Shown: positions 500-15,746 of the stretch, piece after piece | Position numbering within the stretch: the first letter of the stretch is position 1 | Layout of the letters: the number at the start of each line of letters is the position of its first letter | Source: Bacilli bacterium | Lineage (GTDB): Bacteria > Bacillota_I > Bacilli_A > RF39 > UBA660 | DNA: 64,000 nt | Direction: 5' to 3' | Assembly (NCBI GenBank): GCA_016290195.1 | Contig: JAEETF010000016.1 | Coordinates: 12,879-76,878, forward strand | Notes under the pieces: generated by a model | Told to the model about the DNA's origin: nothing | Databases searched by the model: none | The model's input: only the letters and a program-made list of their open reading frames with translations | Translations under genes and position numbers: made by a program

Positions 500-1534
500 A
501 TGGCATTAAAAGGTGTTGTAATTGATGCTGGACATGGTGGTGCTGATCCAGGGGCTATTGGTAATGGTTACCAAGAAAAAAATATTAATTCTATGATGGC
601 AGATTATATGTTTAATAGATTTAATGAACTTGGTATTCCAGTTAAATATGTTAGAAGTACTGATGAAACATTATCTCCTAAAGATAGAACTAGAGAGATA
701 CTTGAAGCATATGGTAATGACCCAGATGTACTAGTTATATCTAATCATATAAATGCGGGAGGTGCTGAAGGAGCTGAAGTAATATATGCACTTAGAAATG
801 ATGGTCAGTTTGCCAGTTTAATACTAGAAGGATTAGAGGAAGCTGGTCAAAAAACTAGAAAAGTATATCAAAGGAGACTACCTAGTAATCCATCAAAAGA
901 TTATAATTTTTTATTTCGTGATACAGGTGTTACAGAACCAGTAATAGTTGAATATGGTTTTATAGATAATGCTAAAGATATAAATAGGGTAGTTGATAAT
1001 GCTGAAAAATATGCTGAAGTAGTTGTTAAGGCAGTTACAGATTATAAAAATTTACCATATACTGCTCCCGGTGAAAAAAATAATACAGCATTTACTTATA
1101 ACGTTCAAAATGGTGATACTTTATGGAGTATATCTAAAAAATATAACTTAAAAGTAGATGATATAAAGCGTGCTAATAATCTTATAAATGATACTTTAAA
1201 AATAGGGCAAAAACTCTTGATTCCTATTACAAATGATGAAAGTAATGTTTATATTGTTCAAAGTGGAGATACATTATATGCGATTGCAATTAAAAATAAT
1301 ATAAGTGTTGATGAATTAAAAAAAGCTAATAATTTAAAAAGTAATTTACTTAGTATTGGTCAAAAGTTAATTATTCCAAATAATAGTAAAGAAGTAGAAT
1401 ATGTTGTTAAAGCAGGAGATAGTTTATGGAAAATAGCTAGACTATATAATACAACTGTAAATGATATAAAAAAATTTAATAGTTTAACAAGTGATTTGTT
1501 AAAAATAGGACAAGTTCTTAAATTAGTAATTTAA
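500..1534 (+). CDS. N-acetylmuramoyl-L-alanine amidase (Amidase_3) with three C-terminal LysM repeats
   Basis: N-terminal 'VVIDAGHGGADPGAIGNG' is a typical Amidase_3 start. Three LysM units follow (YNVQNGDTLWSISKKYN, YIVQSGDTLYAIAIKNN, YVVKAGDSLWKIARLYN). RBS 'agaggtga' precedes the ATG. Confidence 0.85.
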   Translation: MALKGVVIDAGHGGADPGAIGNGYQEKNINSMMADYMFNRFNELGIPVKYVRSTDETLSPKDRTREILEAYGNDPDVLVISNHINAGGAEGAEVIYALRNDGQFASLILEGLEEAGQKTRKVYQRRLPSNPSKDYNFLFRDTGVTEPVIVEYGFIDNAKDINRVVDNAEKYAEVVVKAVTDYKNLPYTAPGEKNNTAFTYNVQNGDTLWSISKKYNLKVDDIKRANNLINDTLKIGQKLLIPITNDESNVYIVQSGDTLYAIAIKNNISVDELKKANNLKSNLLSIGQKLIIPNNSKEVEYVVKAGDSLWKIARLYNTTVNDIKKFNSLTSDLLKIGQVLKLVI

Positions 1535-1599
1535 GAGCTTTATTTATTTGACATAATAAATAAAAAATAATACAATAGATGTAGTATTTGAGGTGCTAT

Positions 1600-2526
1600 A
1601 TGAAGAAAAAAATTGCGGTTTTAATACCATGTTATAATGAATCAAAAACAATTGAGAAAGTAGTTAAAGATTATCACAAGGTTTTACCTGATGCTGATAT
1701 TTATGTTTATGATAATAATTCTAGTGATGGTACAGATAAAATTGCTGAAAAAGCAGGTGCTATTATTAGATACGAATATAAACAAGGAAAAGGAAATGTT
1801 ATTAGATCAATGTTTAAAGATATTGATGCTGATTGCTATTTAATGATTGATGGTGATGATACATATCCTAAAGAAAATGCTGTAGAAATGTGTAATCTTA
1901 TATTAGAAAGAAAAGCTGATATGGTTATTGGTGATCGTTTATCAAGTACATATTTTACAGAAAATAAAAGACCATTTCATAATTTTGGTAATGTTTTAGT
2001 AAGAGGATTAATTAACTTTTTATTTAAGAGTAATGTTCGTGATATTATGACTGGATATCGTGCTTTTAGTTATGATTTTGTTAAAACATTCCCTGTTCTA
2101 TCTAAAGGTTTTGAAATAGAAACAGAAATGACTATACATGCACTAGATAAAAATTTCTTATTAAAAGAAATTCCTGTTGAATATCGTGATAGACCAGCAG
2201 GTAGTGTATCTAAACTTCATACATTTAGAGATGGAGCTAAAGTTTTAAAAACTATTACAAGATTATTTAAAGAATACAAACCAAGACTTTTCTTTGGATT
2301 ACTTAGTTTATTATTCTTTATTATTTCTATGATTATTGGTATTCCAGTATTTAAAGAATATTTTGATACAGGATTAGTACCACGTTTTCCAAGTTTAATA
2401 TTTGCTGGTTTTATGCTTGTAATTTCAATGTTATTCTTTACATGTGGAATTATTCTAGAAGTTGTTGTAAAAAAACATAGACAATTATTTGAATTAGAAC
2501 TCATAAGGACAAAGAAAAATGATTAA
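1600..2526 (+). CDS. GT2-family polyprenyl-phosphate glycosyltransferase (GtrB/DPM1-like) with C-terminal TM helices
   Basis: 'IPCYNESKTIEKVV' and 'DGDDTYP' (DxD) GT2 motifs plus two C-terminal TM segments. ATG 1600 is preferred over TTG 1588 because of RBS 'gaggtg' at 1590-1595. Confidence 0.8.
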   Translation: MKKKIAVLIPCYNESKTIEKVVKDYHKVLPDADIYVYDNNSSDGTDKIAEKAGAIIRYEYKQGKGNVIRSMFKDIDADCYLMIDGDDTYPKENAVEMCNLILERKADMVIGDRLSSTYFTENKRPFHNFGNVLVRGLINFLFKSNVRDIMTGYRAFSYDFVKTFPVLSKGFEIETEMTIHALDKNFLLKEIPVEYRDRPAGSVSKLHTFRDGAKVLKTITRLFKEYKPRLFFGLLSLLFFIISMIIGIPVFKEYFDTGLVPRFPSLIFAGFMLVISMLFFTCGIILEVVVKKHRQLFELELIRTKKND

Positions 2527-2917
2527 AAATTTTTTACAAAGTAAACTATTTAAACAATTATTTAGATTTGGTATAGTTGGTGGAATAGCTTTTGTTATTG
2601 ACTATAGTATTATGGTTTTATGCAAAGAAGTATTTCATTTATCAACACTTTTATCTGCAGGACTTGGTTTTACTATATCAGTTATATTTAATTATATTGC
2701 TAGTGTTAAATGGGTTTTTGATGTTAATAAAAAGAATAGTTCAACTAAACAATTTATTTTATTTATAATTTTTAGTGTTATGGGGCTTGGAATTACAGAA
2801 TTAATAATGTGGTTTGGTGAAGATATTTTATTAATTAGTTATTTAATTGTTAAAATATTCGCAACTGCTGTAGTAATGGTATTTAATTTTATTACTAGAA
2901 AAATGTTTTTAGAATAG
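2519..2917 (+). CDS. GtrA-family small membrane protein (polysaccharide synthesis or flippase accessory)
   Basis: 132 aa with four TM helices, 'FRFGIVGGIAFVIDY' GtrA signature, overlapping the upstream GT2 gene by 8 nt (classic gtrA/gtrB pairing). Confidence 0.7.
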   Translation: MIKNFLQSKLFKQLFRFGIVGGIAFVIDYSIMVLCKEVFHLSTLLSAGLGFTISVIFNYIASVKWVFDVNKKNSSTKQFILFIIFSVMGLGITELIMWFGEDILLISYLIVKIFATAVVMVFNFITRKMFLE

Positions 2918-2971
2918 ATTAATAAAGGACATAATTAGTCCTTTTTTTCATATATTTTTATAGGTGAAAAT

Positions 2972-4045
2972 ATGAAGAAAATAATTATAATTTTATTTTT
3001 AGTATTGTTTCCTATAAAAGTATTTGCTCTTGAAACAAGTGCCACAAGTTCTATTTTAATGGATCAAGATTCACATAGAATTTTATATGCTGATAATATT
3101 CATAAAGTTCGTGGAGTAGCTTCCATTTCTAAAATAATGACAGCAATATTAGCTTGTGAAAGTGGTAAACTTGATGATGTTATAACTATTAATGAAAGTA
3201 TAAATAGTGCATATGGATCAGGTATTTATATTAAAGTAGGAGAAGAATTAACATTACGTGATTTAGTATATGGACTTATGCTTAGAAGTGGTAATGATGC
3301 AGCAAGTGCTATAGCTGATTATGTTGGTGGAGATATAGATAAGTTTGTTGAAATGATGAATAACAAAGCTAAAGAAATTGGAATGAAAAACTCTAAATTT
3401 AATAATCCTAGTGGTCTTGATGATAATGGTGGTAATCTTTCAACTGCATATGATATGGCTCTTCTTATGAGTTATGCAATGAAAAATAAAGAATTTAAAA
3501 CAATAACAGGTACAAAAGTTTATAAATTAAAAACAAATATGAATTATTATTCTTGGATAAATAAAAATAAATTACTAAATAGTTATAAATATACAACTGG
3601 TGGTAAAACAGGATTTACTGATGTAGCTAAAAGAACATTAGTTACAACAGCTACAAAAGATAATTTAAATTTAGTAGCAGTTACTTTAAATGATGGTAAT
3701 GATTTTATAGATCATAAAAATTTATTTGAATATGGATTTAGTAAATATAAAAATTATTCTATTTTAGAATCAGGAATAATAAATATATATGATGAAAATT
3801 ATTATGGTAAAAGTGAATTTTATATTAATAATTCATTTTCATATCCATTACTTGAAACAGAGCAAAGTAGTATTAAATTAAAATTTTTAATAGAGAAAAA
3901 AGAAGATATTAAGAGTAATGAAGAAATAGGTAATGTAGAAGTATTTATTGGTGATAAAAAAATATATGAAGATATTTTGTTTATAAGAGAAAAAGAAAAT
4001 GACAAAGCTGGCTTTTTTACTAAATTAAGGAGCTTATTTAAATGA
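2972..4045 (+). CDS. dacB: D-alanyl-D-alanine carboxypeptidase (PBP5*-type, sporulation-associated)
   Basis: Signal peptide, SxxK active site 'ASISKIMTA', 'SGN' motif 'LRSGNDAA'. Sits directly upstream of spmA-spmB as in the Bacillus dacB operon. Confidence 0.8.
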   Translation: MKKIIIILFLVLFPIKVFALETSATSSILMDQDSHRILYADNIHKVRGVASISKIMTAILACESGKLDDVITINESINSAYGSGIYIKVGEELTLRDLVYGLMLRSGNDAASAIADYVGGDIDKFVEMMNNKAKEIGMKNSKFNNPSGLDDNGGNLSTAYDMALLMSYAMKNKEFKTITGTKVYKLKTNMNYYSWINKNKLLNSYKYTTGGKTGFTDVAKRTLVTTATKDNLNLVAVTLNDGNDFIDHKNLFEYGFSKYKNYSILESGIINIYDENYYGKSEFYINNSFSYPLLETEQSSIKLKFLIEKKEDIKSNEEIGNVEVFIGDKKIYEDILFIREKENDKAGFFTKLRSLFK

Positions 4046-4626
4046 TAAATAAATTATGGGCATTATTTATTATAATTGGAATTATTACATTTATTATAAC
4101 TGGTGATTATGAAGGCTTAAATGCAACTATTTTAAATAGTGGTCAAAAAACATTTGATATGGTTATTAAAATATTTCCAGTAATAGCTTTATGGCTTGGT
4201 ATTATGGAAATCGCAACTGCCTCAGGGTTGCTTAAAAAACTATCAAATTTATTTTATCCTATTTTAAAACACCTTTTTCCAGAAATACCTAAAGATAATA
4301 AAGCACTTGGATATATATCAAGCAATATCATAACTAATATGTTTGGTCTTGGAAATGCAGCTACACCATTTGGTTTAAAAGCAATGAAAGAACTTCAAAA
4401 ACTTAATAAGAAAAGAAACGAAGCAACAAGAAGCATGATTACTTTTTTAGTAATTAATACTAGTGGAGTCACTATTTTTCCAACAACAGTTATATCACTT
4501 CGTATGATGTATGAAAGTAAAAATCCATCAGAAATAATACCAATATGTATTTTAACAACATTTATTTCATTAATGATTGCTATTATGATTGATAAAATAT
4601 TTGCTAGAAGGTATCAACATGAGTAA
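4042..4626 (+). CDS. spmA: spore maturation protein A (nucleoside-transporter/Gate-domain membrane protein)
   Basis: ~194 aa polytopic membrane protein with ATGA overlap onto dacB; size and position match SpmA. Confidence 0.75.
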   Translation: MINKLWALFIIIGIITFIITGDYEGLNATILNSGQKTFDMVIKIFPVIALWLGIMEIATASGLLKKLSNLFYPILKHLFPEIPKDNKALGYISSNIITNMFGLGNAATPFGLKAMKELQKLNKKRNEATRSMITFLVINTSGVTIFPTTVISLRMMYESKNPSEIIPICILTTFISLMIAIMIDKIFARRYQHE

Positions 4627-5119
4627 TCTAATATTACCAGGTATTGTTATTATTGTTATTATTTATGGATTATATAAAAAAAGAGATATTTATAATGATT
4701 TTACTAATGGTGCAAAGCAAAGTTTTAATATGATTTTTGAAATGTTTCCATCAATGCTAGCTATGATTTTAGGTATTAATTTGTTACTTGACAGTGGTTT
4801 TATTACTAAAATATTTAGTATTTTTTCATTTAAGTTTTTACCAGTAGATATTTTTCCTATGGCCATATTAAGACCAATATCTGGAAGTTCTACATTAGCA
4901 GTTTTAACAAATATTTTTAAAGTTTCAGGACCAGATAGTTTAGCAGGTAGAATAGCTTCTATAATACAAGGATCTACTGATACAACTATTTACGTTTTAA
5001 CATTATATTTTGGAACTATTGGTATAAAAAAAATAAAATATGCTTTAACTGTAGGACTTATTTCAGATTTAATTAGTATTGTAACAGCTATTATTTTAGT
5101 AAATATATTTTTTCATTGA
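4619..5119 (+). CDS. spmB: spore maturation protein B
   Basis: ~166 aa membrane protein immediately after spmA. ATG 4619 is chosen (RBS 'agaagg') rather than the upstream in-frame ATG 4589, which overlaps spmA. Confidence 0.75.
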   Translation: MSNLILPGIVIIVIIYGLYKKRDIYNDFTNGAKQSFNMIFEMFPSMLAMILGINLLLDSGFITKIFSIFSFKFLPVDIFPMAILRPISGSSTLAVLTNIFKVSGPDSLAGRIASIIQGSTDTTIYVLTLYFGTIGIKKIKYALTVGLISDLISIVTAIILVNIFFH

Positions 5120-5159
5120 AAAAGTGTTTAATTTAATGTATAATTCATTAAAGGTGATG

Positions 5160-5882
5160 GACATGGAAAGAATCCAAAAAATAATAGCTAATCGTGGCTA
5201 TTGTTCTAGAAGAAAAGCTGAAGAATATATTTTAGCTGGTAAAGTAAGATTAAATGGTGAAATAGTAAAAGAACTTGGTACTCTTGCACAACCAAGTGAT
5301 ATTATTGAAGTTAATGGCGATATTATTAAACAAGAAGATAAAGAGTATATATTACTTTATAAACCACGTGGTGTAATTACTTCAACAAATGATGATAAAA
5401 AAAGAAAAACAGTTATTGATATAGTTAAAAGCAAAAAAAGAATTTATCCTGTAGGACGACTTGATTATGATACTAGTGGTATACTTTTACTTACTAATGA
5501 TGGTGAATTAACTAATAGCTTGATTCATCCTAAAAATGAAATAGAAAAAATGTATATTGCAAAAGTAAAAGGATTTGTAAATAAGGATGATATTAAATCA
5601 CTATGTAGGGGTGTAGTAATTGATGGATATAAAACTGCACCTGCTAAAGCAAAATTAAAAAAATATGATCGTTCAACTAATACTTCAATTGTAGAATTAA
5701 TAATTCATGAAGGAAAAAATCATCAAGTTAAAAAGATGTTTAGTACTTTAGGTTATGAGGTTTTAAAACTAAAAAGAGAAACTTTTGCCTTTTTAAATCT
5801 TAATGGATTAAAATCTGGTGAATATCGTAATTTAACTCCAAAGGAAGTAAAAATTTTATATAGTTTAGTACAAAAAAAGTAA
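5160..5882 (+). CDS. rluB: 23S rRNA pseudouridine synthase (RsuA/RluB family, S4 domain plus PseudoU_synth_2)
   Basis: N-terminal S4 'RIQKIIANRGYCSRRKAEEYI', catalytic 'PVGRLDYDTSGILLLTNDG'. RBS 'aaaggtga'. Confidence 0.8.
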   Translation, partial: DMERIQKIIANRGYCSRRKAEEYILAGKVRLNGEIVKELGTLAQPSDIIEVNGDIIKQEDKEYILLYKPRGVITSTNDDKKRKTVIDIVKSKKRIYPVGRLDYDTSGILLLTNDGELTNSLIHPKNEIEKMYIAKVKGFVNKDDIKSLCRGVVIDGYKTAPAKAKLKKYDRSTNTSIVELIIHEGKNHQVKKMFSTLGYEVLKLKRETFAFLNLNGLKSGEYRNLTPKEVKILYSLVQKK

Positions 5883-5897
5883 AGCCATGCTTTACTT

Positions 5898-6104
5898 TTA
5901 TTTTTCTTCTACTGAAATAGCACTTGTAGGGCAACCGCTTTCAGCACCCTCTACATTGTCTTTTTCATCATCTGTAAGACTATCAAAGTCTTCTTTTTTT
6001 ACAGTTGCAAATCCTTCATCACTAAGTTCAAATACATTTGGTTCAAATCCTTCGCAAGCTCCACAACCAATACATTTATCTTTATCAATACATATTTTTT
6101 TCAT
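5898..6104 (-). CDS. small clostridial-type [4Fe-4S] ferredoxin
   Basis: 68 aa with 'CIGCGACEGFEP' and a distal 'CP' cysteine; strong RBS AAGGAGG upstream on the - strand. Confidence 0.8.
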   Translation of the reverse strand: MKKICIDKDKCIGCGACEGFEPNVFELSDEGFATVKKEDFDSLTDDEKDNVEGAESGCPTSAISVEEK

Positions 6105-6210
6105 AATATTCCTCCTTGTTTAATTATAAAAAAAACTTATCTATTTTGCAAGTAAATAGTTTTAAAATGACAAAATTTATGTTATCATTATAATAATCGG
6201 GGTGATAGAT

Positions 6211-7038
6211 ATGCCAAGTAGAATGGAACGCTATTATGAACCACGTGAAGGTGGACCAAGTAGAGCTAAGAAAAATCAAGAATTATATGAGCAAATAAAT
6301 GGTCAAGAAGAATTTGAAAATAAAGAATATATGGCAAAAGAGTATACAAATGTAGAAGGATTTGCTAAAACACCAGAAAAAGGTAGTGTAGATATTCGTA
6401 AAATTCGAGAAATGCTAAATACACGTGAAGAAAAGAATAAACCTAATATTCAAGAATTATATAAACAAATAGAACAAAAAGAGGAAACTGAACCTATTGT
6501 TGAAGAAAATAAGAATTATGATATAAATGATGTTTTAAATAAAGCAAAAGATGAAAGACCGGTAAATGAAGTAGAAAACAATTTTCATAGTTTAAAAAAT
6601 GTAGAACTTGATATACTTAAAAATTTAGAAATAAACAAAGTTCCAGAAGAAGAACCTAATGAAGAAGAAAAACAAGATATATCACAATTGTTTAATACAA
6701 TTACTAATACTAGCTTATTAGATAAAATGGGTGATGATGAGTTATCACTTGATTTACTTGGAGATTTGAAATCTAATGGAACAACTATGATAAGTGATGC
6801 TGCTGAAATGAAAGAAGCCCTTGAAGAAGCTAAAAATAAGCCGCAAGAAGATAATCAAATGGATAAATCATTTTATACATCAACTTTCAAATTTGGTAAA
6901 TTAAAAAAATTATATGCTGAAAATGATGAAGATGAAGAAAATGAAAACAAAAGTGTAGCATTTAAAATAATTATTGCTGTTTTAAGCCTTTTCGCTTTAG
7001 CAATTTTAGTATTTATTATTTGGAAAATACTTCATTAA
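6211..7038 (+). CDS. hypothetical acidic (Glu/Lys/Asn-rich) protein with a single C-terminal TM anchor
   Basis: Low-complexity acidic sequence ending in 'FKIIIAVLSLFALAILVFIIW'. RBS 'ggggtga' before ATG 6211 (the ORF track starts at an upstream GTG). Confidence 0.5.
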   Translation: MPSRMERYYEPREGGPSRAKKNQELYEQINGQEEFENKEYMAKEYTNVEGFAKTPEKGSVDIRKIREMLNTREEKNKPNIQELYKQIEQKEETEPIVEENKNYDINDVLNKAKDERPVNEVENNFHSLKNVELDILKNLEINKVPEEEPNEEEKQDISQLFNTITNTSLLDKMGDDELSLDLLGDLKSNGTTMISDAAEMKEALEEAKNKPQEDNQMDKSFYTSTFKFGKLKKLYAENDEDEENENKSVAFKIIIAVLSLFALAILVFIIWKILH

Positions 7039-7064
7039 GAAAGATTAAATTCTTTCTTTTTTTA
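7039..7064 (+). terminator. intrinsic terminator after the acidic-protein gene
   Basis: Hairpin 'agaaagattaaattctttct' followed by a T-run. Confidence 0.5.
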
Positions 7065-7089
7065 TGTTATAATTTTTTTGGTGATATAT

Positions 7090-8313
7090 GTGCAAACTAT
7101 TGAAATAAATAAATTAGATCATCAAGGTAGAGGTATTGGAAAAATAGATAATAAAGTAATATTTGTTCCATATACACTTCCTGGTGATCTTGTAGAAGTA
7201 GAAATAACAAAAGAAAAAAAGAATTTTTTAGAAGGAAAAGTAAATAAATTTATAAATAAAAGTGATGAACATATTGAAAATAAATGTTTATATTATGGTA
7301 TATGTGGTGGTTGTCAATTAAGACATATGTCATATCAAAAACAATTAGAATTTAAACAAAATAAGATAGAAGAAATAATTAATAAATTTGTTAAAGAAAA
7401 AATAAAAATTAATAATATTATACCTTGTGATAATATTGATTATTATCGAAATAAAATATCTTTAAAAGTAGTAGATAATAAATTAGGTTTTAATATACTG
7501 GGAACACATAATATTATACCTATTAATGAATGTTTGATTGCTGATAAAAAAATAAATAATATTATTAAAGTGCTAAATAAACAAAATTTATCAGGAATAG
7601 ATAATATTATGATTAGAAGTAGTTTTGTAAATGATGATATTATGGTTTATTTAGAAGGAAAAAAGTGTCAAATTGATATAAATGAACTAAAAAAATATGT
7701 AACGAGTATTGCTTTACATATCAACGAAAATAGCAAAAAAGTAATCAACAAAGGTAATATAATTGAAAAATTAAATAATATTAAATATAAAATATCAAAT
7801 TTGTCATTTTTTCAAGTAAATACAGCTCAAACTATAAAATTATATGATTTAATTTTAGATAAAAGTAAGCTAAATGGTAAAGAAGTTGTATATGATTTAT
7901 ACTGTGGAACAGGAACAATAGGATTATATTTAAGTCATAAATGTAAGAAAGTAATTGGAATTGAGCTAATTGAAGATGCAGTTATAGATGCTAGAGAAAA
8001 TGCTAAAATAAATAATATTCAAAATTGTGAATTTTATGCTGGAGATGTTTCTAAAATAATTGAAAAAATGAATGAAAAAGCAGATGTAATAATTGTAGAT
8101 CCTCCACGAAATGGTCTTGATAATAAAACAATACAAAATATATTTCGCCTTAATCCTTTAAGAGTAGTTTATACATCTTGTGATCCAATAACACTTGCTA
8201 GAGATTTAAATATATTAAAAGAAAAATACAATATTATAGATATTACACCAGTTGATATGTTTCCAAATACATATCATGTGGAAACGGTCATGGTTTTAGA
8301 AAGGAAAAATTAA
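7090..8313 (+). CDS. rlmD: 23S rRNA (uracil-C5)-methyltransferase, RlmD/RumA family (TRAM, Fe-S and SAM-MTase domains)
   Basis: Cys cluster 'CLYYGICGGCQLRHM', SAM motif 'VYDLYCGTGTIGLYLS', 'DPPRNG'. Start codon is uncertain (in-frame TTG 7078, GTG 7081, GTG 7090). Confidence 0.8.
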   Translation: MQTIEINKLDHQGRGIGKIDNKVIFVPYTLPGDLVEVEITKEKKNFLEGKVNKFINKSDEHIENKCLYYGICGGCQLRHMSYQKQLEFKQNKIEEIINKFVKEKIKINNIIPCDNIDYYRNKISLKVVDNKLGFNILGTHNIIPINECLIADKKINNIIKVLNKQNLSGIDNIMIRSSFVNDDIMVYLEGKKCQIDINELKKYVTSIALHINENSKKVINKGNIIEKLNNIKYKISNLSFFQVNTAQTIKLYDLILDKSKLNGKEVVYDLYCGTGTIGLYLSHKCKKVIGIELIEDAVIDARENAKINNIQNCEFYAGDVSKIIEKMNEKADVIIVDPPRNGLDNKTIQNIFRLNPLRVVYTSCDPITLARDLNILKEKYNIIDITPVDMFPNTYHVETVMVLERKN

Positions 8314-8317
8314 AATG
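8254..8317 (+). repeat. direct repeat copy A: the native 3' end of rlmD plus RBS spacer
   Basis: 'gatatgtttccaaatacata...atggttttagaaaggaa.aattaa.atg' recurs at 9522-9585 with roughly 85% identity by eye. Confidence 0.7.
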
Positions 8318-8863
8318 ACAAAAGAATATTTTGATTTATTAAATGAAAATGGTGAAAGAATAGGGAAAACAAAATTAAGAAGTGAAGTACATCGTGATGG
8401 GGATTGGCACAAGGCAGTTCATATTTGGATTATAAATAATAAGGGGGATATTCTTCTTCAAAGAAGGTGCGCAACAAAAGATAGTAACCCTAATATGTTA
8501 GATATTTCAAGTGCTGGTCATTTATCTGCAGGTGATGATTCATTAACAGGAGCTATTAGAGAATTAAAAGAAGAATTAAACCTTGATGTTAATAAAGAAG
8601 ATTTAGAATATATAAAAACATTAAAGAGAAGTTCTAAATATACAGAAACTTTTATTAATAATGAATTTGACGATTTATATATTTTAAGAACTGATAAAAA
8701 ACTAGAAGATATGGAGTATCAAAAAGAGGAAATATCTGAAATAATGTATGTACCATACAAAGAGTTTAAAAAAATGGTACAAAATAAACAACCAGATTTA
8801 TTAGGACATGATGAAGAATTTGAAATATTATTTAATTTATTTGATAACGAATATGACAAGTAA
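8315..8863 (+). CDS. NUDIX hydrolase
   Basis: Nudix box 'GHLSAGDDSLTGAIRELKEELNL' (GX5EX7REUXEEXGU pattern). Confidence 0.8.
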   Translation: MTKEYFDLLNENGERIGKTKLRSEVHRDGDWHKAVHIWIINNKGDILLQRRCATKDSNPNMLDISSAGHLSAGDDSLTGAIRELKEELNLDVNKEDLEYIKTLKRSSKYTETFINNEFDDLYILRTDKKLEDMEYQKEEISEIMYVPYKEFKKMVQNKQPDLLGHDEEFEILFNLFDNEYDK

Positions 8864-8870
8864 TAAATAA

Positions 8871-8970
8871 CATGTTCTTTATCCGCATACATATAGGTAA
8901 CAGTGGGTATGAAATATGTTCGTTGACCAAATACATGGTTAAACGATATGTTCGTTAACCGCATACTAGG
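8871..8970 (+). repeat. three imperfect copies of a ~25-nt motif (ATATGTTCGTTRACC..ATAC) in the NUDIX/membrane-gene intergenic region
   Basis: Copies at 8871-8897, 8914-8938 and 8946-8970. Copy 2 also carries the 'ccaaatacat' core of the rlmD-end repeat. Confidence 0.45.
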
Positions 8971-8998
8971 CACGTTGAAATAGTTTGTAAAATGAAAT

Positions 8999-9026
8999 TA
9001 AGAGATACCAAATAGGTATCTTTTTT
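8999..9026 (+). terminator. intrinsic terminator
   Basis: Perfect hairpin 'agataccaaataggtatct' plus 'tttttt'; followed by an extended -10 'tgtggtataat'. Confidence 0.65.
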
Positions 9027-9052
9027 GTGGTATAATGTTTTTAGGTGATAAT

Positions 9053-9523
9053 ATGAATTTTGGTTTTTCTTATGTAGGATTAATATATTTATTAATGTTA
9101 TTTATACCAAATATTATTTGGAGTAAAAATTTACCTAAAAATTATGATAAGTATGTAAAAAATGAAAATAAAGCATTAGTAATATTAGAAAGAATAGGAG
9201 AAGTATTACTAACAGTACTACCATTAATTTTTAAAGATTTTAATATTAATAAAATATCTAATTGGTCTATTATATTATTAATATCTTTTTTATTAATGAT
9301 ACTTTATGAAATAAGCTGGATAAGATATTTTAAGAGTAATAAAACTATGGAAGATATGTATAAATCTATCATAGGTATTCCAGTACCAATAGCTTCTCTA
9401 CCTGTATTTGCATTTCTTTTATTAGGAGTATATGGTAAAAATATATTCATAATTATATCAATTATTATTATGGGTATAGGACATATAGGAATACATTTAA
9501 ATCACAGAAAAGAAATAAAATGA
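9053..9523 (+). CDS. hypothetical polytopic membrane protein
   Basis: Four or five hydrophobic helices. ATG 9053 has RBS 'aggtga'. Lies between the two rlmD-end repeats. Confidence 0.5.
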   Translation: MNFGFSYVGLIYLLMLFIPNIIWSKNLPKNYDKYVKNENKALVILERIGEVLLTVLPLIFKDFNINKISNWSIILLISFLLMILYEISWIRYFKSNKTMEDMYKSIIGIPVPIASLPVFAFLLLGVYGKNIFIIISIIIMGIGHIGIHLNHRKEIK

Positions 9524-9585
9524 TATGTTTCCAAATACATACCACATCGAAAGCCTAATGGTTTTAGAAAGGAAGAATTAATATG
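9522..9585 (+). repeat. direct repeat copy B: a diverged, promoterless copy of the rlmD 3' end plus RBS spacer, fused to the start of the next gene
   Basis: Would encode DMFPNTYHIESLMVLERKN*, compared with DMFPNTYHVETVMVLERKN* at the true rlmD end. Confidence 0.7.
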
Positions 9586-10302
9586 AAAATAGCAGTATTT
9601 AGTGATATTCATGGTAATTATCAAGCTACAAAAGCAATAATAGATGATATTAATAAAAATAATTTTGATGAAGTAATTTGTTTAGGTGATATAATTGGAA
9701 TTGGACCTAAACCTAAAGAATGTTTAGAACTACTACTTAATAGTGAAATTACAATTGTAGCTGGTAATCATGATTTATATTATACGAAGGGTTTAGAAAT
9801 TGATGATGAAATAACATCAGAAAATGAGATAAAACATCATCATTGGATTCATGAGTGTATAAAAGATATTCCTAAAGAAAAAATGAACTGGCCATTATCA
9901 AAAGAAATAAATGTTAATGGTAAAAAAATAGTTTTTCAGCATTATATGTTATCTAAAGATACAAGTGTTGACCCATATCCATTTGAAACTATATCAATAA
10001 GAAATATAAAAGATATTGAAGAATATTGTAAAAATATGGATTCGGATTATTTATTTATAGGACATGAACATCGAGCATTTGAAGTTCATGAAAATAATAA
10101 AAATATAATATGTGTTGGTAGTAGTGGTTGTGTAAAAACAAATAAAACGTTTTATACAATAATTGATATTAATGATGATATAAATATTACAAAAAAAGAA
10201 ATTGAATATGATAGAGATGGGTTTATAAATGATATAAAATCATATAAGTATCCTGATCAAGAGTTTATTGCTAAAGTATTACTAGGAATAGATAATTTGT
10301 AA
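9583..10302 (+). CDS. metallophosphoesterase (calcineurin-like, YfcE/MPP family)
   Basis: 'FSDIHGN', 'CLGDIIGIGP', 'GNHD', 'GHEH' phosphoesterase motifs. Confidence 0.8.
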   Translation: MKIAVFSDIHGNYQATKAIIDDINKNNFDEVICLGDIIGIGPKPKECLELLLNSEITIVAGNHDLYYTKGLEIDDEITSENEIKHHHWIHECIKDIPKEKMNWPLSKEINVNGKKIVFQHYMLSKDTSVDPYPFETISIRNIKDIEEYCKNMDSDYLFIGHEHRAFEVHENNKNIICVGSSGCVKTNKTFYTIIDINDDINITKKEIEYDRDGFINDIKSYKYPDQEFIAKVLLGIDNL

Positions 10303-10304
10303 AA

Positions 10305-10342
10305 AAATATAGTATAAAAAATATTACGTTTAACGTAATATT
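10305..10342. terminator. bidirectional intrinsic terminator between convergent genes
   Basis: Inverted repeat 'aatattacgtttaacgtaatatt' flanked by A/T runs. Confidence 0.6.
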
Positions 10343-11311
10343 TTATTTTTCAATTAAAAACGGAAGAATTTGTTCAACAGGTGTATCATGATAAATAATA
10401 TCAAATATTAAATTAATAATAGGCATCTTAATATTTTTGCTTGTAATTAATTTATGAATAGAATCTAAAGTATATAATCCTTCTATTGTGGTATTTTTGA
10501 TATAATTTTCAATTTCTTTTTTATCTTTTTTTAATCCAAGCATTTTTCCAAAAGTAAAATTTCTACTTTTAGGACTTGTACAAGTAAGAAGAATATCACC
10601 AAAGCCGGCAAAAGAAGTAATTGTTTTAGAATCACCACCAAGTTTTTCAATTAGATGTTTAATATCATTGGTAGCTTCAGTTATGAACATTGCTTGAGTA
10701 GAAATAGGTAGTCCTAAACCATCTAAAATTCCAGCAATTATGGCCATTACATTTTTAATACTTCCACATAGTTCAACACCGATAATATCTTTTGTTTCTC
10801 TTAATTTTACATGTTTATTTGCTAGAACATTTTTTGTAATATTAATTGTTTCAGTATTTTCACTAGCGATTGACAAACCAATAGGTACTTTATTTGCAAC
10901 ATCAATAGCAAATGTAGGACCAGAAATAACACATAATTTATTAGTATTAATTATTTCTTTAATAACTTTAGAAATAAATAAACAAGTATCTTGTTCTATA
11001 CCTTTAGAAGCTATACAAATATGTTTATCTTTTATGTATTCCTTATATTCAGTTATAACATTTCTAATAGTGCTAGCTGGAATAGCAATTATAACTAATT
11101 CAGAATTTATAATAGCTTTTTCAAAATCAGTAGTAATATTTATATTTTTATCAATATCAATATTTGGAAGAACAGGACTTTTTCTATTATTAATAATATA
11201 TTCTTTTTCTTCTTCAAATTTAGTCCATATTGTTACATTATGCTTATTTTCATTTGCAATAATACCTAAACATAAACCAAATGCACCAGCTCCAAGTATA
11301 CAAATATTCAT
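10343..11311 (-). CDS. gpsA: NAD(P)H-dependent glycerol-3-phosphate dehydrogenase
   Basis: 'MNICILGAGAFG' Rossmann start, 'ISGPTFAIDVA', and GpsA-like overall length. Confidence 0.9.
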   Translation of the reverse strand: MNICILGAGAFGLCLGIIANENKHNVTIWTKFEEEKEYIINNRKSPVLPNIDIDKNINITTDFEKAIINSELVIIAIPASTIRNVITEYKEYIKDKHICIASKGIEQDTCLFISKVIKEIINTNKLCVISGPTFAIDVANKVPIGLSIASENTETINITKNVLANKHVKLRETKDIIGVELCGSIKNVMAIIAGILDGLGLPISTQAMFITEATNDIKHLIEKLGGDSKTITSFAGFGDILLTCTSPKSRNFTFGKMLGLKKDKKEIENYIKNTTIEGLYTLDSIHKLITSKNIKMPIINLIFDIIYHDTPVEQILPFLIEK

Positions 11312-11416
11312 TACATCACATCCTTATTATTATTGTATCATAAAAGTTATTTATATTTGACTTTTTTAAAATTTAGAATACAATATTTATATCTAATTTA
11401 TATCTAGGGAGGTTAT

Positions 11417-12067
11417 ATGAGAAACAAATTTGAATTACTGCAGTTGCTTAAATGTTATGATCAATATCTAGATATGGAAGGTAAAAAATATTTAAATGAA
11501 TTAATTAATTTAGATATATCTTTTTTTCAAAAAAATTTATTATCTAAATACAATACTATTTATTTAAGAGGATTATCTATATATAAAGAAGCAGCATTAC
11601 ATAATATTATCGGAAAACTACAAATAAAATTTAATGATGAAAATTTTATACTGGAAAATAAATATGAAGAATTTATATTAAAAAAAGATATAGATAATAT
11701 CCTTATAAGTATTTTAGAATTAATATATAATACTGATAAGAATGAAGATTATTTTGGATTAATTATACTTTATAATTATGAATTATATAAAACTTCAGAT
11801 TTAAAAGAATTAAAAGATAAAATAAGAATATTAAAGAATCGCAGTTTGAATTATAAAGCAACTGCGTATGAAAAAATAACTTATACTAATGAACTAAATA
11901 TTTTATTAAAAAAAGAAGAGGAAATGACATTAATTAAAAATGATTCTACTAAAATAGAAAAAATTAAATTATTAAATAATATAAATGAAAAAATAAAATC
12001 ATATTTTGAAGAAAATAATTATGAAAATAGTGGTATAAAAATTAAAAATATGATTAAGAAAATTTAA
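11417..12067 (+). CDS. hypothetical Lys/Asn-rich protein
   Basis: ORF with RBS 'agggaggt'; no recognisable motif. Confidence 0.45.
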   Translation: MRNKFELLQLLKCYDQYLDMEGKKYLNELINLDISFFQKNLLSKYNTIYLRGLSIYKEAALHNIIGKLQIKFNDENFILENKYEEFILKKDIDNILISILELIYNTDKNEDYFGLIILYNYELYKTSDLKELKDKIRILKNRSLNYKATAYEKITYTNELNILLKKEEEMTLIKNDSTKIEKIKLLNNINEKIKSYFEENNYENSGIKIKNMIKKI

Positions 12068-12097
12068 AAATTTGATATAATACTAATGGTGATATAT

Positions 12098-12487
12098 ATG
12101 AGTAAAAAAATCATGATAGTAATTAGTATTTTTTCTTTATTTATTTGTGGTTGTGATAGTGATAAAAAAGAAGTAAAAACGTATGATACAGAAGTAGTTG
12201 AAAATAAAAGTGAAGTATCAGAACTTGATAAAATACTTTCTAAAAATAATTATATTATAGTTGATGTTAGAACTAAAGAATAATATGAAACAGGACATGT
12301 AAAAGGTGCTATTAATATACCTTATGATACTATTGATGATAAAACTAATTTAGATAAAAATAAAACTATTTTAGTATATTGTAAAAGTGGTGCAAGAAGT
12401 GCAAAAGCATATCAAACTTTAAAAGATTTAAAATACGATGTATATGATTTAGGAGCATATTCTAAAATTCAACTTGATAAGGAATAG
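12098..12487 (+). pseudogene. rhodanese-domain lipoprotein gene interrupted by an in-frame TAA (12281-12283)
   Basis: Lipobox 'LFICGC'. 'IVDVRTKE*YETGHVKGAINIPYD...YCKSGARS' reads as a continuous rhodanese domain except for the TAA at the position normally Glu/Gln. Confidence 0.6.
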
Positions 12488-12492
12488 ATGAT

Positions 12493-12521
12493 TTGACTTT
12501 TTAAACTGTATATGTTATAGT
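12493..12521 (+). promoter_or_regulatory. sigma-A-like promoter (TTGACT-17-TATAGT)
   Basis: 'ttgact' 12493-98 and 'tatagt' 12516-21. Confidence 0.4.
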
Positions 12522-12523
12522 AA

Positions 12524-12553
12524 CCCCCGTGGAATTAAATGGGGGATTTTTTT
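12524..12553 (+). promoter_or_regulatory. GC-clamped hairpin that includes the only SD-like element (GGGGG) of the downstream gene, followed by a U-run
   Basis: 'cccccgtggaattaaatggggg' plus 'attttttt' immediately before ATG 12554. Confidence 0.4.
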
Positions 12554-13588
12554 ATGAACATAAAACCTAGTTATTTAGTAAGAAATGAAATAAAAATTGA
12601 TAAGAGTAGTATGAAACTTCATTCACTATCGGATGCAATATTAGGTGAAAAAATAGATTCAAATATTCCTAATTTAGATAAATATGTTAATTTATATCAA
12701 AAAAATAGAAAAAAATTAGAAGATTCATTTGAACATTCATTAACTCTTACGATTGAAGAATTAAGATATTTAAGTAATTTGTATCCCAAAAAATTAAAGA
12801 AATTTAAAATATGGCTTTATATTCAAAAACCAGGAGAAATTGGATATGAAGAATTAAAAAAATTTAAAAATAACTTTAATATGTATGCAGTTGTTGTAAA
12901 TAATTTAATGACAAAGCATGGGAAATTTAAACCACATATGATTAATTATAATTTATATCTTGAATACTCTAAAAAATTATGGGATATTGTAAGTAATATT
13001 GATTATGAAGAATGCTATAATTCTAATAATCCGCAAATAAATGTTTTTTGTAAGCTTTTAAAAGAAATAGTTAATAATGTTCAAAGAGGAGATGCAGACG
13101 AAAGTTATACTGAAAAACTTAGTAAAAATTTACAAAAATTTGAAAGAATTCCAGATGAAATAATTGGCTTAGTAAGTGGCGAATGTGTATGTCGTGGGAT
13201 GAGTGGAATTATTAGAGATGCTTGTGCATTAATAGGTATTAAAACAAAAGTTATTAAGGGTGAAAGAGATATAGATGGTCATGCATGGAATCAAGTAAAA
13301 TTAAATGGTAATTGGTATAATGTTGATTTAACATGGGATCATGCAAATATTAAGAAAAATATGGCACCATATTTTATTTTGAAAAGTAATAAAGAATTTA
13401 ATAGAACACGTGTAATGGATGAATCTAATAATATATGTTGTCATGGCGATTATATTTATAAAAGAACACTAGAACATGAATGTAATGTTTCTATTCCAAA
13501 TGAAATGGTAGAGTATTATTTATATAATTCGAAAGCAAAAGATGTTAAAAATGAAGGAAGAATTAAAAAAATGTTATTACATTATTAG
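12554..13588 (+). CDS. transglutaminase-like cysteine protease-fold protein
   Basis: Cys-His-Asp core: 'GECVCRGMSG', 'DGHAWNQV', 'NVDLTWD'. Confidence 0.55.
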   Translation: MNIKPSYLVRNEIKIDKSSMKLHSLSDAILGEKIDSNIPNLDKYVNLYQKNRKKLEDSFEHSLTLTIEELRYLSNLYPKKLKKFKIWLYIQKPGEIGYEELKKFKNNFNMYAVVVNNLMTKHGKFKPHMINYNLYLEYSKKLWDIVSNIDYEECYNSNNPQINVFCKLLKEIVNNVQRGDADESYTEKLSKNLQKFERIPDEIIGLVSGECVCRGMSGIIRDACALIGIKTKVIKGERDIDGHAWNQVKLNGNWYNVDLTWDHANIKKNMAPYFILKSNKEFNRTRVMDESNNICCHGDYIYKRTLEHECNVSIPNEMVEYYLYNSKAKDVKNEGRIKKMLLHY

Positions 13589-13642
13589 TTCTTCTTTTTT
13601 CTTTTATAAAATTAGAGTATAATAAAATTAGGAAGAGATATT

Positions 13643-14254
13643 ATGACAAAGTATTATGATTTTAGAAAAGAAATTAATATTAAAGATTTAGATGAAATAA
13701 TAAAAAATTTTAATGATAATGGAGTAGTTATTTTTCCTACTGAAACGGTATTTGGAATTGGTGGTAATGCTTTTTCAAATGAAGTTATAAATAGAATCTA
13801 TGATATAAAACAAAGACCTATATCAAAGAATGTTAATATTATGGTTGGAAATAAAAAACAAATAGAAGAGTATGCATATGTAAATGAAAAAGAGAAAAAA
13901 ATAATAGAAAAATATATGCCTGGTGAAATTACAATAATATTAAAAAAGAAGAAAGAACTTAATAGTTATGCTTTTGATAATGATACTATAGGTATTCGCA
14001 TTCCAAATAATAATATAATGCTTAAAATACTTTCTAAATTAGAATTTCCAATTGTTGCAACAAGTGCCAATATAAGTGGCGATGGTAATTATAATTATGA
14101 AGATATTAAAAAACATTTTGATGGTAAAGTAGATGCGATTATTAATGGAGTAGTAGGTTCTAATACCCCTTCTACTATAGTTAAAGTAGTAAATAATAAT
14201 ATTGAGGTATTAAGACAAGGAAAGATAGTAATAGATAGTGAGTTGATAAAATGA
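13643..14254 (+). CDS. tsaC: L-threonylcarbamoyladenylate synthase (YrdC/YwlC/TsaC family)
   Basis: 'VVIFPTETVFGIGGNAFS', 'IGIRIPNN', 'VATSANISG'. Confidence 0.8.
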   Translation: MTKYYDFRKEINIKDLDEIIKNFNDNGVVIFPTETVFGIGGNAFSNEVINRIYDIKQRPISKNVNIMVGNKKQIEEYAYVNEKEKKIIEKYMPGEITIILKKKKELNSYAFDNDTIGIRIPNNNIMLKILSKLEFPIVATSANISGDGNYNYEDIKKHFDGKVDAIINGVVGSNTPSTIVKVVNNNIEVLRQGKIVIDSELIK

Positions 14255-15081
14255 TAGAATTTCATGCTGATGATTATGGTATGACTATAAAACAAAGTAA
14301 GAGAATTATTGAATGTATTGATAATGGAGTTTTAAATGGAATTAGTTTGATGCCTAATAGTCCTAATTTAGATGAATGTATGAATTTACTTCAAAATCGT
14401 GATGTAAAAATAGCTATTCATTTTAATTTTTGCGAAGGTAAATGTTTATCAGAAGAAAGAATAATTGCTAAAAGTGGCAATTTTGAACCTAATTTTATTA
14501 AATTACTTTTAGTTTCTTATATACCTTTTGAAAGAAAAAAATATAAAAATGCTTTTAAAAAAGAAATTGAAAAACAAATAGAGGCAGTATCAAAGTATTA
14601 TACTAATAAACCATATCGTATTGATTCTCATTGTCATTATCATATGCTTCCAGTAATATTTGATGCTTTAATGGAAGTAATAGAAGAGAAAAAAATGGAT
14701 GTTGAATATATACGTATTCCTATTGAAAAAAAATTAAAGATTAAACCTAAAAATGTACCTTTTGTTAATAGAATTAAAAATTTAATATTAAAAATATTAT
14801 ATAAACGTGATAAATTTAAAAATAAAAAACTAATTAAATATGGTAATAAAGAATTTTTAGGCATATTATTTTCAGGACATATGTTTTATGAAAGCGTTAG
14901 TGTAATGTTACAAAATAAATTAGATAATATTGAAATACTATTTCATCCAGGCGCAATTTATGAGAAGGAAGATATGGATATTATTACTAATAAATTTGAT
15001 CTAGAATTTTTAACTAGTCCAAATCGTCAAAAAGAGGGCGAAGCTACTATTAAAATAAAAAATGATTTAGAGAAAATGTGA
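14251..15081 (+). CDS. YdjC/ChbG-family carbohydrate deacetylase
   Basis: 'EFHADDYGMT', 'IDSHCHYHMLP' metal-binding motifs; ATGA overlap with tsaC. Confidence 0.7.
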   Translation: MIEFHADDYGMTIKQSKRIIECIDNGVLNGISLMPNSPNLDECMNLLQNRDVKIAIHFNFCEGKCLSEERIIAKSGNFEPNFIKLLLVSYIPFERKKYKNAFKKEIEKQIEAVSKYYTNKPYRIDSHCHYHMLPVIFDALMEVIEEKKMDVEYIRIPIEKKLKIKPKNVPFVNRIKNLILKILYKRDKFKNKKLIKYGNKEFLGILFSGHMFYESVSVMLQNKLDNIEILFHPGAIYEKEDMDIITNKFDLEFLTSPNRQKEGEATIKIKNDLEKM

Positions 15082-15243
15082 CATTTTTGCTTTACAAAAT
15101 ATAGAAAAATACAAATTTGTGAAATTTTACTTAAAATTATAAATATTACTTTTTAAATTATAAAAGTAATAAAATTGCAAGATAATGTTATTTTTCGACA
15201 AAATTACTATTAATGTATATAAATGTAAATGAAAGGATTAAAA

Positions 15244-15576
15244 ATGAAAAAATATATGAAAGATTATATTAATAAAATAGATGAATTATTAAATAAAAAT
15301 GAAAAGATTAATAATGAAATTATATCAGAGCATTTAATTAAAATTAGTTTTTTTCAGCATGAAAGATTAATACATTTATTAGTAACACTTTTTTATGCAT
15401 TATTTGTCTTTATATTTTTAGCTTTTTCTATATGGATAACATATCAATTTTTAATAGTTGAATTAATACTATTAGTATTTTTAGGTTTTTATATTAAACA
15501 TTATTTCTTTTTAGAAAATGGTGTTCAATATATGTATAAACAATATGATAAAATGAAAAATAAGTTGACAAAATAA
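15244..15576 (+). CDS. hypothetical small two-TM membrane protein
   Basis: RBS 'gaaagga' before ATG 15244; two hydrophobic helices. Confidence 0.4.
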   Translation: MKKYMKDYINKIDELLNKNEKINNEIISEHLIKISFFQHERLIHLLVTLFYALFVFIFLAFSIWITYQFLIVELILLVFLGFYIKHYFFLENGVQYMYKQYDKMKNKLTK

Positions 15577-15625
15577 ACTATGTATGATAATTTAGTTATG
15601 AATTTGAAGTGAAAGGAGTGAGAAA

Positions 15626-15709
15626 ATGAAGAAATTTTATTGTTTTTATAATTATGTAGTATTGAGTAAAGATAAGTGGAAAGGAGTTTCTTCATTTTTC
15701 ACTTGTTAA
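15626..15709 (+). CDS. 27-codon upstream ORF (MKKFYCFYNYVVLSKDKWKGVSSFFTC): candidate leader peptide or exported peptide
   Basis: Strong RBS 'gaaaggagtgag' 6 nt upstream. Contains an internal SD-like 'ggaaaggag'. Its stop lies 6 nt before a hairpin. Confidence 0.35.
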   Translation: MKKFYCFYNYVVLSKDKWKGVSSFFTC

Positions 15710-15715
15710 CTATGC

Positions 15716-15746
15716 AGACTACATAATATATGTAGTCTTTTATTTT
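15716..15746 (+). terminator. intrinsic terminator or attenuator between the upstream ORF and the ABC exporter gene
   Basis: Stem 'agactacat'/'atgtagtct' with loop 'aatat', then 'tttatttt'; only ~10 nt before the exporter RBS. Confidence 0.5.

Follow-up and report, generated by a model that had tools for sequence, protein, structure and literature searches.

We describe here an array of small gene cassettes that occupies the 3' end of rlmD, a 23S rRNA methyltransferase gene, in a stretch of 64,000 nucleotides (nt) from a Bacilli bacterium (assembly GCA_016290195.1, contig JAEETF010000016.1, positions 12,879 to 76,878 of the forward strand). This whole stretch is referred to as the window, and its own coordinates are used throughout. 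Behind rlmD, and on the same strand, lie genes for a NUDIX hydrolase, a small membrane protein and a metallophosphoesterase (MPE), each of which is preceded by a copy of the rlmD end, and together they constitute a three-cassette array inserted in the rlmD 3' end. We consider it likely, with a probability of roughly 0.65, that the array arose by site-specific cassette capture at rlmD through a recombinase acting in trans and encoded elsewhere. On balance, we also lean towards a broader proposition, namely that uncultured Bacilli of gut and rumen possess an integron-like gene-capture platform, with its site in the coding 3' end of rlmD, its recombinase away from the array, and cassettes that each carry a spare functional RlmD C-terminus and are moved within and between genomes. 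No description of single-gene cassette arrays at rlmD was found in the literature.

The rlmD end is repeated in the window

The anchor gene rlmD (7090-8313, plus strand) encodes a RumA/RlmD-family 23S rRNA U5-methyltransferase with TRAM and methyltransferase domains (Pfam PF05958 and PF01938). The product of 407 amino acids (aa) from the GTG at 7090 is the form on record, and the PDB entries of RlmCD (5xj1) and RumA (1uwv) align with it up to its very C-terminus. An initial annotation, made from the letters of the sequence, had pointed out a direct repeat of ~85% identity between the end of rlmD and 9522-9585. This was confirmed by a gap-free alignment of 8253-8318 (copy A) with 9521-9586 (copy B), in which 56 of 66 positions are identical (84.8%). 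The gene anatomy that it had given also held, with rlmD followed by the NUDIX gene, the membrane-protein open reading frame (ORF) and an MPE gene fused to the ribosome-binding site (RBS) of copy B. The copies, which are direct repeats at a distance of 1,268 nt, agree exactly over one block of 21 nt (TGATATGTTTCCAAATACATA) and another of 17 nt (ATGGTTTTAGAAAGGAA). A search for the 21-mer TGATATGTTTCCAAATACATA with up to 3 mismatches returned exactly 2 sites in the window versus 0.02 expected from 100 shuffles, none of which yielded two or more matches, and a degenerate pattern for the right half returned the same 2 sites only (0.04 expected). Thus, the repeat is neither a chance occurrence nor a window-wide motif, the latter having been named at the outset as grounds for doubt. 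Repeat copies were found at 8253, ~8946 and 9521 only, and a scatter in both orientations such as that of miniature inverted-repeat transposable elements or repetitive extragenic palindromes was not seen.

Copy A spans the final 19 codons of rlmD with its stop and RBS and abuts the NUDIX ATG (8315). Its left half (8253-8274, plus strand) consists of the resident rlmD codons (V)DMFPNTY, is 21/21 identical to 9521-9541, and is rlmD DNA with 97.5% identity to the closest relative (L081 among our numbered loci) up to the boundary between the Tyr and His codons. This boundary, between 8274 and 8275 at the right edge of the left half, is the recombination junction. From here onward the right part of copy A (8275-8314, plus strand), which holds the last 12 RlmD codons (HVETVMVLERKN), the stop and the RBS, diverges from copy B. 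This right part can be read as a replacement end delivered with the NUDIX gene; a near-identical copy of it is present inside the L048 array at 3764, and it holds the Glu that is replaced by Gln in PDB entry 5zq1. All differences between A and B are confined to 8274/9542 and rightward. The nine in the coding part affect six third, two first and one second codon position, with V>I, T>S and V>L as the resulting amino acid changes.

Copy B begins on the stop of the membrane ORF (TGA 9521-9523), provides the RBS for the MPE gene (ATG 9583) and translates to DMFPNTYHIESLMVLERKN followed by a stop. Its left half (9521-9542, plus strand) is an uninterrupted rlmD left half that overlaps the membrane-ORF stop and is 21/21 identical to 8253-8273, while its right part (9543-9582, plus strand) is a displaced rlmD end (HIESLMVLERKN and a stop) plus RBS that travels with the MPE gene. 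The functional rlmD end of L048 is almost identical to this right part. We also observed that copy B forms an intact 18-codon ORF from ATG 9525 to TAA 9579-9581, which starts 1 nt past the membrane-ORF stop (TGAtATG 9521-9527) and stops 1 nt ahead of the MPE start (TAAtATG 9579-9585). By this arrangement, the relic rlmD end could couple MPE translation to that of the membrane gene by termination-reinitiation.

A third, degenerate copy (copy C, ~8946-9002) lies between the NUDIX and membrane genes and is made up of the last of three ATATGTTC units plus CAC GTT GAA ATA GTT TGT. A repeat search of the 170-nt spacer 3' of the NUDIX gene found three direct A[TC]ATGTTC-spacer-ATAC units (families D4 and D13), which look like a left half of the repeat into which 5 nt have been inserted. 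Downstream of copy C, a scan found a hairpin at 9003-9021 with a T-run to 9026, and an extended -10 element (TGgTATAAT, 9028-9036) and an RBS (AGGTGAT, 9043-9049) follow it. With this third copy in between, which has a terminator and promoter of its own (8946-9052), copies A and B enclose two units rather than one.

The array can be followed part by part on the plus strand. The NUDIX cassette ORF (8315-8863, 182 aa, PF00293) is followed by what we term a type II left element (8864-8970), with direct units at ~8870-8890, 8914-8934 and 8946-8970, which mimics the DMFPNTY region of rlmD with the 5-nt insertion and has homologues after unrelated ORFs in L088, L048, L089, L077 and L101. The copy C right part (8971-9052), delimited by sequence reading and the hairpin scan, is a self-promoted leader for the second cassette, whose small membrane-protein ORF (9053-9523, from the ORF listing) has 156 aa in the form on record, no match to a Pfam family and no homologue among the other arrays. 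The last member is the MPE cassette ORF (9583-10302, PF12850 and PF00149), which in the window has no left element. At the array end, sequence reading identified a perfect 10-bp palindrome (AATATTACGT tta ACGTAATATT) with a T-run (10320-10342), beyond which lies the convergent gpsA (10343-11311, minus strand, assigned by Pfam). The order in the window is thus A-right, NUDIX and type II left; C-right, membrane gene and rlmD-like left; B-right and MPE, with copies A and B as the outermost junctions of a block of two cassettes.

In the initial annotation, A and B had been taken as att-like scars of one mini-island in the rlmD 3' end, with the rlmD-proximal copy as the functional replacement end and the distal copy as the displaced one. 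Our results support recombination scars of an insertion as well as these roles for the two ends, and the att-like reading was right in kind. However, it was too narrow, as it missed the third copy and the mobility of the MPE gene itself, and the single island must give way to two cassettes parted by degenerate copy C. The proposed comparison of GC content gave no signal, since GC is flat across the insert and flanks (~17-33%) and reveals no composition anomaly of the insert. Rfam searches likewise returned only chance-level matches in 8200-9650 (E up to 10) and no families in eight array loci. A candidate structured RNA at 8858-9035 (fold z = -2.7) was rejected as mostly the terminator hairpin, with no family match, and a promoter scan was uninformative in such AT-rich DNA (37 sites versus 37 expected). 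Elsewhere, the window has a T-box leader (33548-33733, 95 bits) and a three-tRNA cluster (50085-50326), which are ordinary chromosomal features unrelated to the array.

Copies of the rlmD end recur in arrays at related loci

More than 60 related loci yielded ~120 further copies of the rlmD end. A peptide-motif scan of 1.03 Mb of rlmD loci found 55 copies on the rlmD strand versus 1 on the opposite strand, and the same bias (98 versus 1) was seen in 48 metagenome loci that had been recovered by a DNA pattern combining one left-element family with the right part. Arrays reach 6-7 copies (L077, L088 and L138). In five loci with enough upstream sequence, rlmD directly precedes the first copy; in L132 and L162, no rlmD was present in the 5-6 kb upstream of the copies. 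The spacers in the first part of the arrays each end with a pseudo-copy of the form H-C/V-E-S/T-x-x-V/I-L-E-R-K/R-stop, which is followed by an RBS and an ATG. An ORF of at least 60 aa follows 96 of 123 copies and starts 38-40 nt after the His codon in 76 cases, the overall distance of cassette ORF starts from the His codon being 37-40 nt. The 85 distinct cassette ORFs (median 197 aa) include GNAT (at least 8), HD (8), NUDIX (7), Metallophos (5) and His_Phos (4) families, together with S51 peptidases, HAD proteins, APH-type kinases, EamA, MBL-fold and GH10 proteins. The NUDIX gene of the window therefore belongs to one of the commonest cassette families (7/85), and its relatives are numerous, falling into 9 clusters at 97-99% and hundreds of clusters at 80-90% identity, versus 2-3 close relatives for host core genes.

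The copies are not all of one kind. In a self-promoted subtype, HVETVMVLEKKDV and its stop run into a terminator hairpin, which is followed by a TATAAT promoter and an RBS; examples are at 8971-9052 in the window and at L048 3764, L130 939 and 5867, L135 791, L143 4529, L148 1379 and L162 5751. When in first position, such a copy would be predicted to end the rlmD transcript and to drive the cassette from its own promoter. Some array-internal copies have decayed through in-frame stops (e.g. H-stop-ESIKGLDKD) or are rlmD ends of other types, such as HVECVCLLMKK-stop and HVETVSVLCRK (L077 12922, L138 3068 and 4340, L144 3390 and L049 11670). These other types agree with C-termini found in further methyltransferase lineages, so that cassettes of different host types coexist in one array.

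The breakpoint lies at the Tyr/His codon boundary

Pairwise comparison of the loci located the point at which cassettes are exchanged. Left elements match at 95% or more over 60 nt in 39 locus pairs whose next ORFs are unrelated; identity in these pairs ends at +3 to +12, where the sequence first becomes variable, with two outliers (+19 and +27). Conversely, 10 pairs match at 95% or more in both right part and ORF but have unrelated left elements, all with the first mismatch at -1 to -3. To judge from these alignments, the breakpoint is demonstrably fixed at the Tyr/His boundary. Homologous cassettes in different arrays have a common right part, ORF and often left element, and one cassette, with an unchanged right part, supplies the actual rlmD end in L138 and L131 but sits at an array-internal position in L151 and L150. 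The fixed breakpoint and the co-inherited parts together define the exchanged unit as right part, ORF and left element.

These breakpoints bear most directly upon the best of the alternatives, which is homology-driven capture without a dedicated recombinase. DNA of relatives would then circularize or invade via the conserved 20-60 nt rlmD ends, in a Campbell-style, RecA-type integration that leaves the repeats as by-products. Such a process would be consistent with the fact that no recombinase is linked to any array, with the perfect 21-nt and 17-nt tracts of the window copies and with the mosaic right parts of some cassette pairs, as well as with right parts in L088 and L077 that can nearly equal the resident rlmD end, which suggests gene conversion. 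However, in the 49 informative high-identity pairs the switch is located at the extreme 5' end of the homologous stretch rather than distributed along it, and most left elements have no rlmD homology and so offer no second homologous arm. The anchors themselves measure 36-40 nt at ~70-80% identity, which is far below the usual length needs of homologous recombination. We therefore regard this explanation as unlikely, although it survives better than the others.

Less probable still is an origin of the units as remnants of prophages, integrative and conjugative elements (ICEs) or integrative and mobilizable elements (IMEs) which repeatedly integrated at rlmD and then suffered near-total deletion, each leaving one cargo gene and an att scar. 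The attL/attR-like geometry would fit, and rlmD/rum is on record as an integration hot spot of prophages and ICEs, with tandem accretion (PMC13651849, PMC12785378). From random decay, however, one would expect remnants of integrase or phage genes along with boundaries that vary, whereas the 85 distinct single-ORF units begin at a fixed distance from the junction and homologous cassettes have the same boundaries in different genomes. Moreover, no integrase or phage domains occur in the cassette ORFs, and phage, plasmid and viral collections gave no match. The initial annotation had remarked on the lack of an integrase and had offered a decayed or trans-mobilized island as the reason. The lack stands and fits mobilization in trans, but decay is an improbable source of ~120 alike junctions, which in dozens of genomes have the same integrase-less, single-gene architecture and fixed crossover point.

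Right parts are constrained as protein-coding sequence

To avoid ascertainment bias, the coding properties of right parts were assessed in a sample of 30 distinct sequences that had been picked by three left-element anchors only. At least 10 open codons with a stop at codon 11-15 were found in 25 of the 30. Both AGY and TCN codons are in use for Ser, and at codons 5 and 7 the middle T is almost invariant while first and third bases vary. Right parts thus bear the clear signature of protein-coding constraint. Their Glu aligns with the Glu of HVETV in pneumococcal RlmCD, the residue that is Gln in PDB entry 5zq1, and the equivalent Glu in RumA is the catalytic base. RlmD thus cannot do without the 12 codons on the right side of the junction, which explains the need for a cassette to bring a good copy of them. 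Between paired cassettes, the identity of three 12-nt segments of the right part was 0.80, 0.72 and 0.86 (baselines 0.70, 0.60 and 0.76), with 0.87 for the ORFs.

The same constraint argues strongly against the repeat being just a cis-acting expression module, i.e. an RBS or translational-coupling leader for promoterless genes with a likeness to rlmD that is incidental to recombination. The fixed 37-40 nt to the start codon, the embedded Shine-Dalgarno sequence and the copy B ORF with stop/start overlaps at both ends are all features that such a leader would have. The Shine-Dalgarno sequence nevertheless accounts for only ~10 of 38 nt, and the 5' remainder is conserved as amino acids, as seen in NTN codons, a stop that is kept and switches between Ser codon families. 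In addition, the upstream ATG is out of frame in most spacers because of the 5-nt insertion, and the fixed breakpoints are left unexplained, so that we give this possibility very little credence.

The MPE gene and its right part recur in genomes with dissimilar RlmD-family proteins

The MPE gene had initially been regarded as the native neighbor of rlmD, and this could not be sustained. MPE homologues are numerous at 80-92% identity, and 9542-10310, i.e. the copy B right part with the MPE gene, is 87-91% identical at the nucleotide level to L088, L089 and L090, even though the RlmD-family proteins of these loci are only 36-41% identical to that of the window. Homology with the spacer upstream of the L088 MPE gene begins at 9542, one base before the copy B His codon, and homology with all three loci stops 2-18 nt past the MPE stop. 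The contexts of the gene differ as well: it ranks fifth among the same-strand genes of a long array that follows rlmD in L088, lies among GNAT genes in L089, is the second gene behind rlmD in L101, and directly follows a 451-aa U5-methyltransferase gene in L090. At 90% identity, the MPE cluster has 32 members, versus 2-3 for the window's RlmD, GpsA and Sua5. A further asymmetry, in which the best RlmD match is 79% and the best MPE match 92%, was set aside as partly a clustering artefact, the RlmD cluster being represented by a 124-aa fragment; the asymmetry holds in the cluster sizes (2 versus 32 members). The MPE gene and its right part have thus evidently spread horizontally, and the gene is itself a mobile cassette for which the right half of copy B is the leader in other genomes. 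The family is not always a cassette, since three alleles (P0156, P0128 and P0125) occur in ordinary contexts with their own promoter and without an rlmD-end leader.

Local tandem duplication of the rlmD end with neutral divergence and no horizontal transfer, to which the direct repeats 1,268 nt apart and uniform GC might have pointed, is already contradicted by this spread of the MPE gene with B-right among genomes with such dissimilar RlmD-family proteins and by both right-part variants being found nearly unchanged elsewhere (the B type as the L048 rlmD end, the A type inside the L048 array), and the A/B differences are moreover codon-structured (6/9 at third positions) and only to the right of 8274.

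Two of the MPE alleles in ordinary contexts have conspicuous surroundings. Ten independent metagenome contigs with an identical P0128 allele (L104-L113) end 150-600 nt upstream of the gene, which suggests an assembly break at repeated or strain-variable sequence. P0156, an MPE homologue with 72% identity (L091-L100), lies between a 99-aa sigma-70 fragment with region 2 only and a 257-aa sigma-factor gene, with ftsA, ftsZ, spoIIGA and sigE as neighbors, and in other contigs the sigma fragment comes after the MPE gene. This locus looks like a duplicated 5' gene fragment around a gene inserted in a sporulation sigma locus.

Surroundings of rlmD in relatives

The host lineage comprises very AT-rich uncultured Bacilli or 'Tenericutes' of animal guts. 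The best species-level RlmD match is 60% identical. Among 80 species-level rlmD loci, none has the NUDIX, membrane, MPE or gpsA gene downstream of rlmD, and there is therefore no simple empty-site comparison. In the closest relative (L081, 79%), rlmD diverges in its last codons and is directly followed by an unrelated gene. Only in L090 does the MPE gene directly follow a methyltransferase gene, but the product of the latter is just 36% identical to the window's RlmD. An arrangement common to all relatives, which the initial annotation had considered damaging to its proposal, was accordingly not seen, as relatives carry different genes at this position.

On the upstream side, the order RluB, ferredoxin, up278 and rlmD is common to several species-level loci. 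The gene up278 (6202-7038) encodes an acidic protein of 278 aa with a C-terminal hydrophobic anchor and no Pfam family, and is conserved in many relatives directly upstream of either rlmD or a gerA insert. The latter is a three-gene gerA-type germination operon (~4 kb, minus strand) that lies directly upstream of rlmD in L002, L084-L087 and L101. It separates up278 from rlmD in L002 and L084-L086 and is absent from the window (6202-7090), L001 and L082, which makes the upstream side of rlmD a variable spot as well.

Discussion

From the above, a cassette consists of a right part of ~38 nt, one ORF and a non-coding left element of 20-130 nt. The right part re-encodes the last 12 RlmD codons (H-x-E-S/T-hydrophobic-x-hydrophobic-L-E-R-K), the stop and the RBS. 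We propose that entry would occur by recombination exactly at the Tyr/His codon boundary (8274/8275 in the window), such that the incoming right part becomes the working RlmD C-terminus, catalytic Glu included, and its RBS serves for translation of the incoming ORF. The earlier right part would be displaced downstream while still joined to its older cassette, and repeated entry would yield an order of rlmD, newest cassette and so on to the oldest. For the window, the probable order of arrival would be the MPE gene, then the membrane gene and then the NUDIX gene. The breakpoint would presumably be the work of a site-specific recombinase whose gene lies elsewhere in the genome, with circular cassettes as putative intermediates. 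Capture at this gene is also in keeping with the tandem accretion of prophages and ICEs known at rlmD/rum (PMC13651849, PMC12785378).

Several observations weigh against site-specific capture by such an enzyme. No recombinase was found in the window, either by Pfam analysis of the ORFs in 500-17,484 or by a crude tyrosine/serine motif regex over the 64 kb, nor beside other arrays with flanks (including L088, L089, L090 and L101) in precomputed Pfam assignments, nor among the families listed for the 85 cassette ORFs. A search for a circular form, plasmid copy or phage copy was equally negative. The whole cassette region had no blastn match in PLSDB or INPHARED, two exact-pattern scans of viral contigs were empty, and the two matches of a looser pattern fell in unrelated sequence. 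The left elements belong to at least six unrelated sequence families with no definable common motif, and as single-stranded DNA they fold no better than shuffles. Right parts are only partly linked to their ORFs: in some homologous cassette pairs, joint inheritance with the ORF extends over no more than the last 12-16 nt, which means that gene conversion, or crossing over within right parts, takes place as well. Copy B poses a further difficulty, because its uninterrupted rlmD-type left half is the only one among 96 left halves from all loci to lie outside a full-length rlmD ORF. The simple model accounts for it only if the left element mimics rlmD perfectly; otherwise, this single event used the 21-nt identity. 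Lastly, the comparison sequences are mostly metagenome assemblies, in which cassette order could reflect repeat-induced mis-joins.

If site-specific capture at rlmD is true, Bacilli reached an integron-equivalent cassette platform another way, with a different site and presumably a different enzyme, and the search for that enzyme could start from the junction sequence, the families of left elements and the over 80 cassettes. Cargo that brings a spare catalytic C-terminus would be a striking route into an essential part of a gene without cost. The system would also explain the spread of small-molecule-modifying genes (GNAT, APH-type kinases, MBL-fold, NUDIX and HD) among gut and rumen bacteria, and would account for orphan rlmD-end sequences in annotations as well as for the frequent assembly breaks in these metagenome-assembled genomes.

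Precedents for individual features of the arrays exist in several known systems. At icd (e14 and phage 21) and at rlmH/orfX, the target of staphylococcal cassette chromosome (SCC) elements including tandem, ccr-less pseudo-SCC elements, an incoming alternative 3' end keeps the target functional. The displaced end stays downstream, and recombinase-less members are mobilized in trans. The spare 3' end is thus a common trait, whereas the target gene, the scale, the regularity of the cassettes and the known integrase (Int or Ccr) set these elements apart from the rlmD arrays. Here the target is an RlmD/RumA-family U5-methyltransferase gene rather than rlmH, and no Ccr or resolvase domain was seen. 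Orphan modules of rhs and cdiA also form arrays of displaced ends; these keep a conserved upstream coding piece, have a C-terminal toxin and an immunity gene as cargo, and move by homologous exchange. In the rlmD arrays, 12 conserved codons make up the displaced piece, and a separate ORF forms the cargo.

Prophages, ICEs and IMEs at rlmD/rum (rumA) have the target gene, the bracketing direct repeats and the stacking at one site in common with the arrays. As expected of such an island, direct repeats bracket the insert and the 3' end is regenerated, RlmD with copy A aligning to the ends of RlmCD and RumA. However, the insert (8315-9520) holds the NUDIX ORF and the 156-aa membrane ORF only, with no integrase by an att site. 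The known elements are 10-100 kb with their own integrase, versus integrase-less single-gene units of 0.4-1.4 kb.

The closest likeness in design is to integrons. There, too, mostly promoterless, co-oriented single-ORF cassettes are lined up at one fixed point by a resident promoter, as the strand bias (98 versus 1), the 37-40 nt spacing and the 49 pairs indicate for co-orientation and a fixed point at rlmD. An attC-like structure was tried and rejected, since the R''/R' core pair (RYYYAAC...GTTRRRY) occurred near chance, in 2 of 98 spacers versus 0.96 expected, and single-stranded folds of 12 spacers (z +0.7 to -2.4) had no common hairpin. The rlmD arrays further differ in that no intI or other recombinase was found adjacent to them, that the insertion point lies in the coding 3' end of a housekeeping gene, and that each cassette carries a spare end. 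Complete integrons have not been found in Firmicutes or Tenericutes genomes (PMC4889954), whereas the hosts of the rlmD arrays are Bacilli. In both systems, the newest cassette is nearest the anchor, cassettes encode no recombinase and bear sites that vary in sequence and length, and the cargo is drawn from the same kinds of genes, such as GNAT, NUDIX, HD, kinases and small hydrolases.

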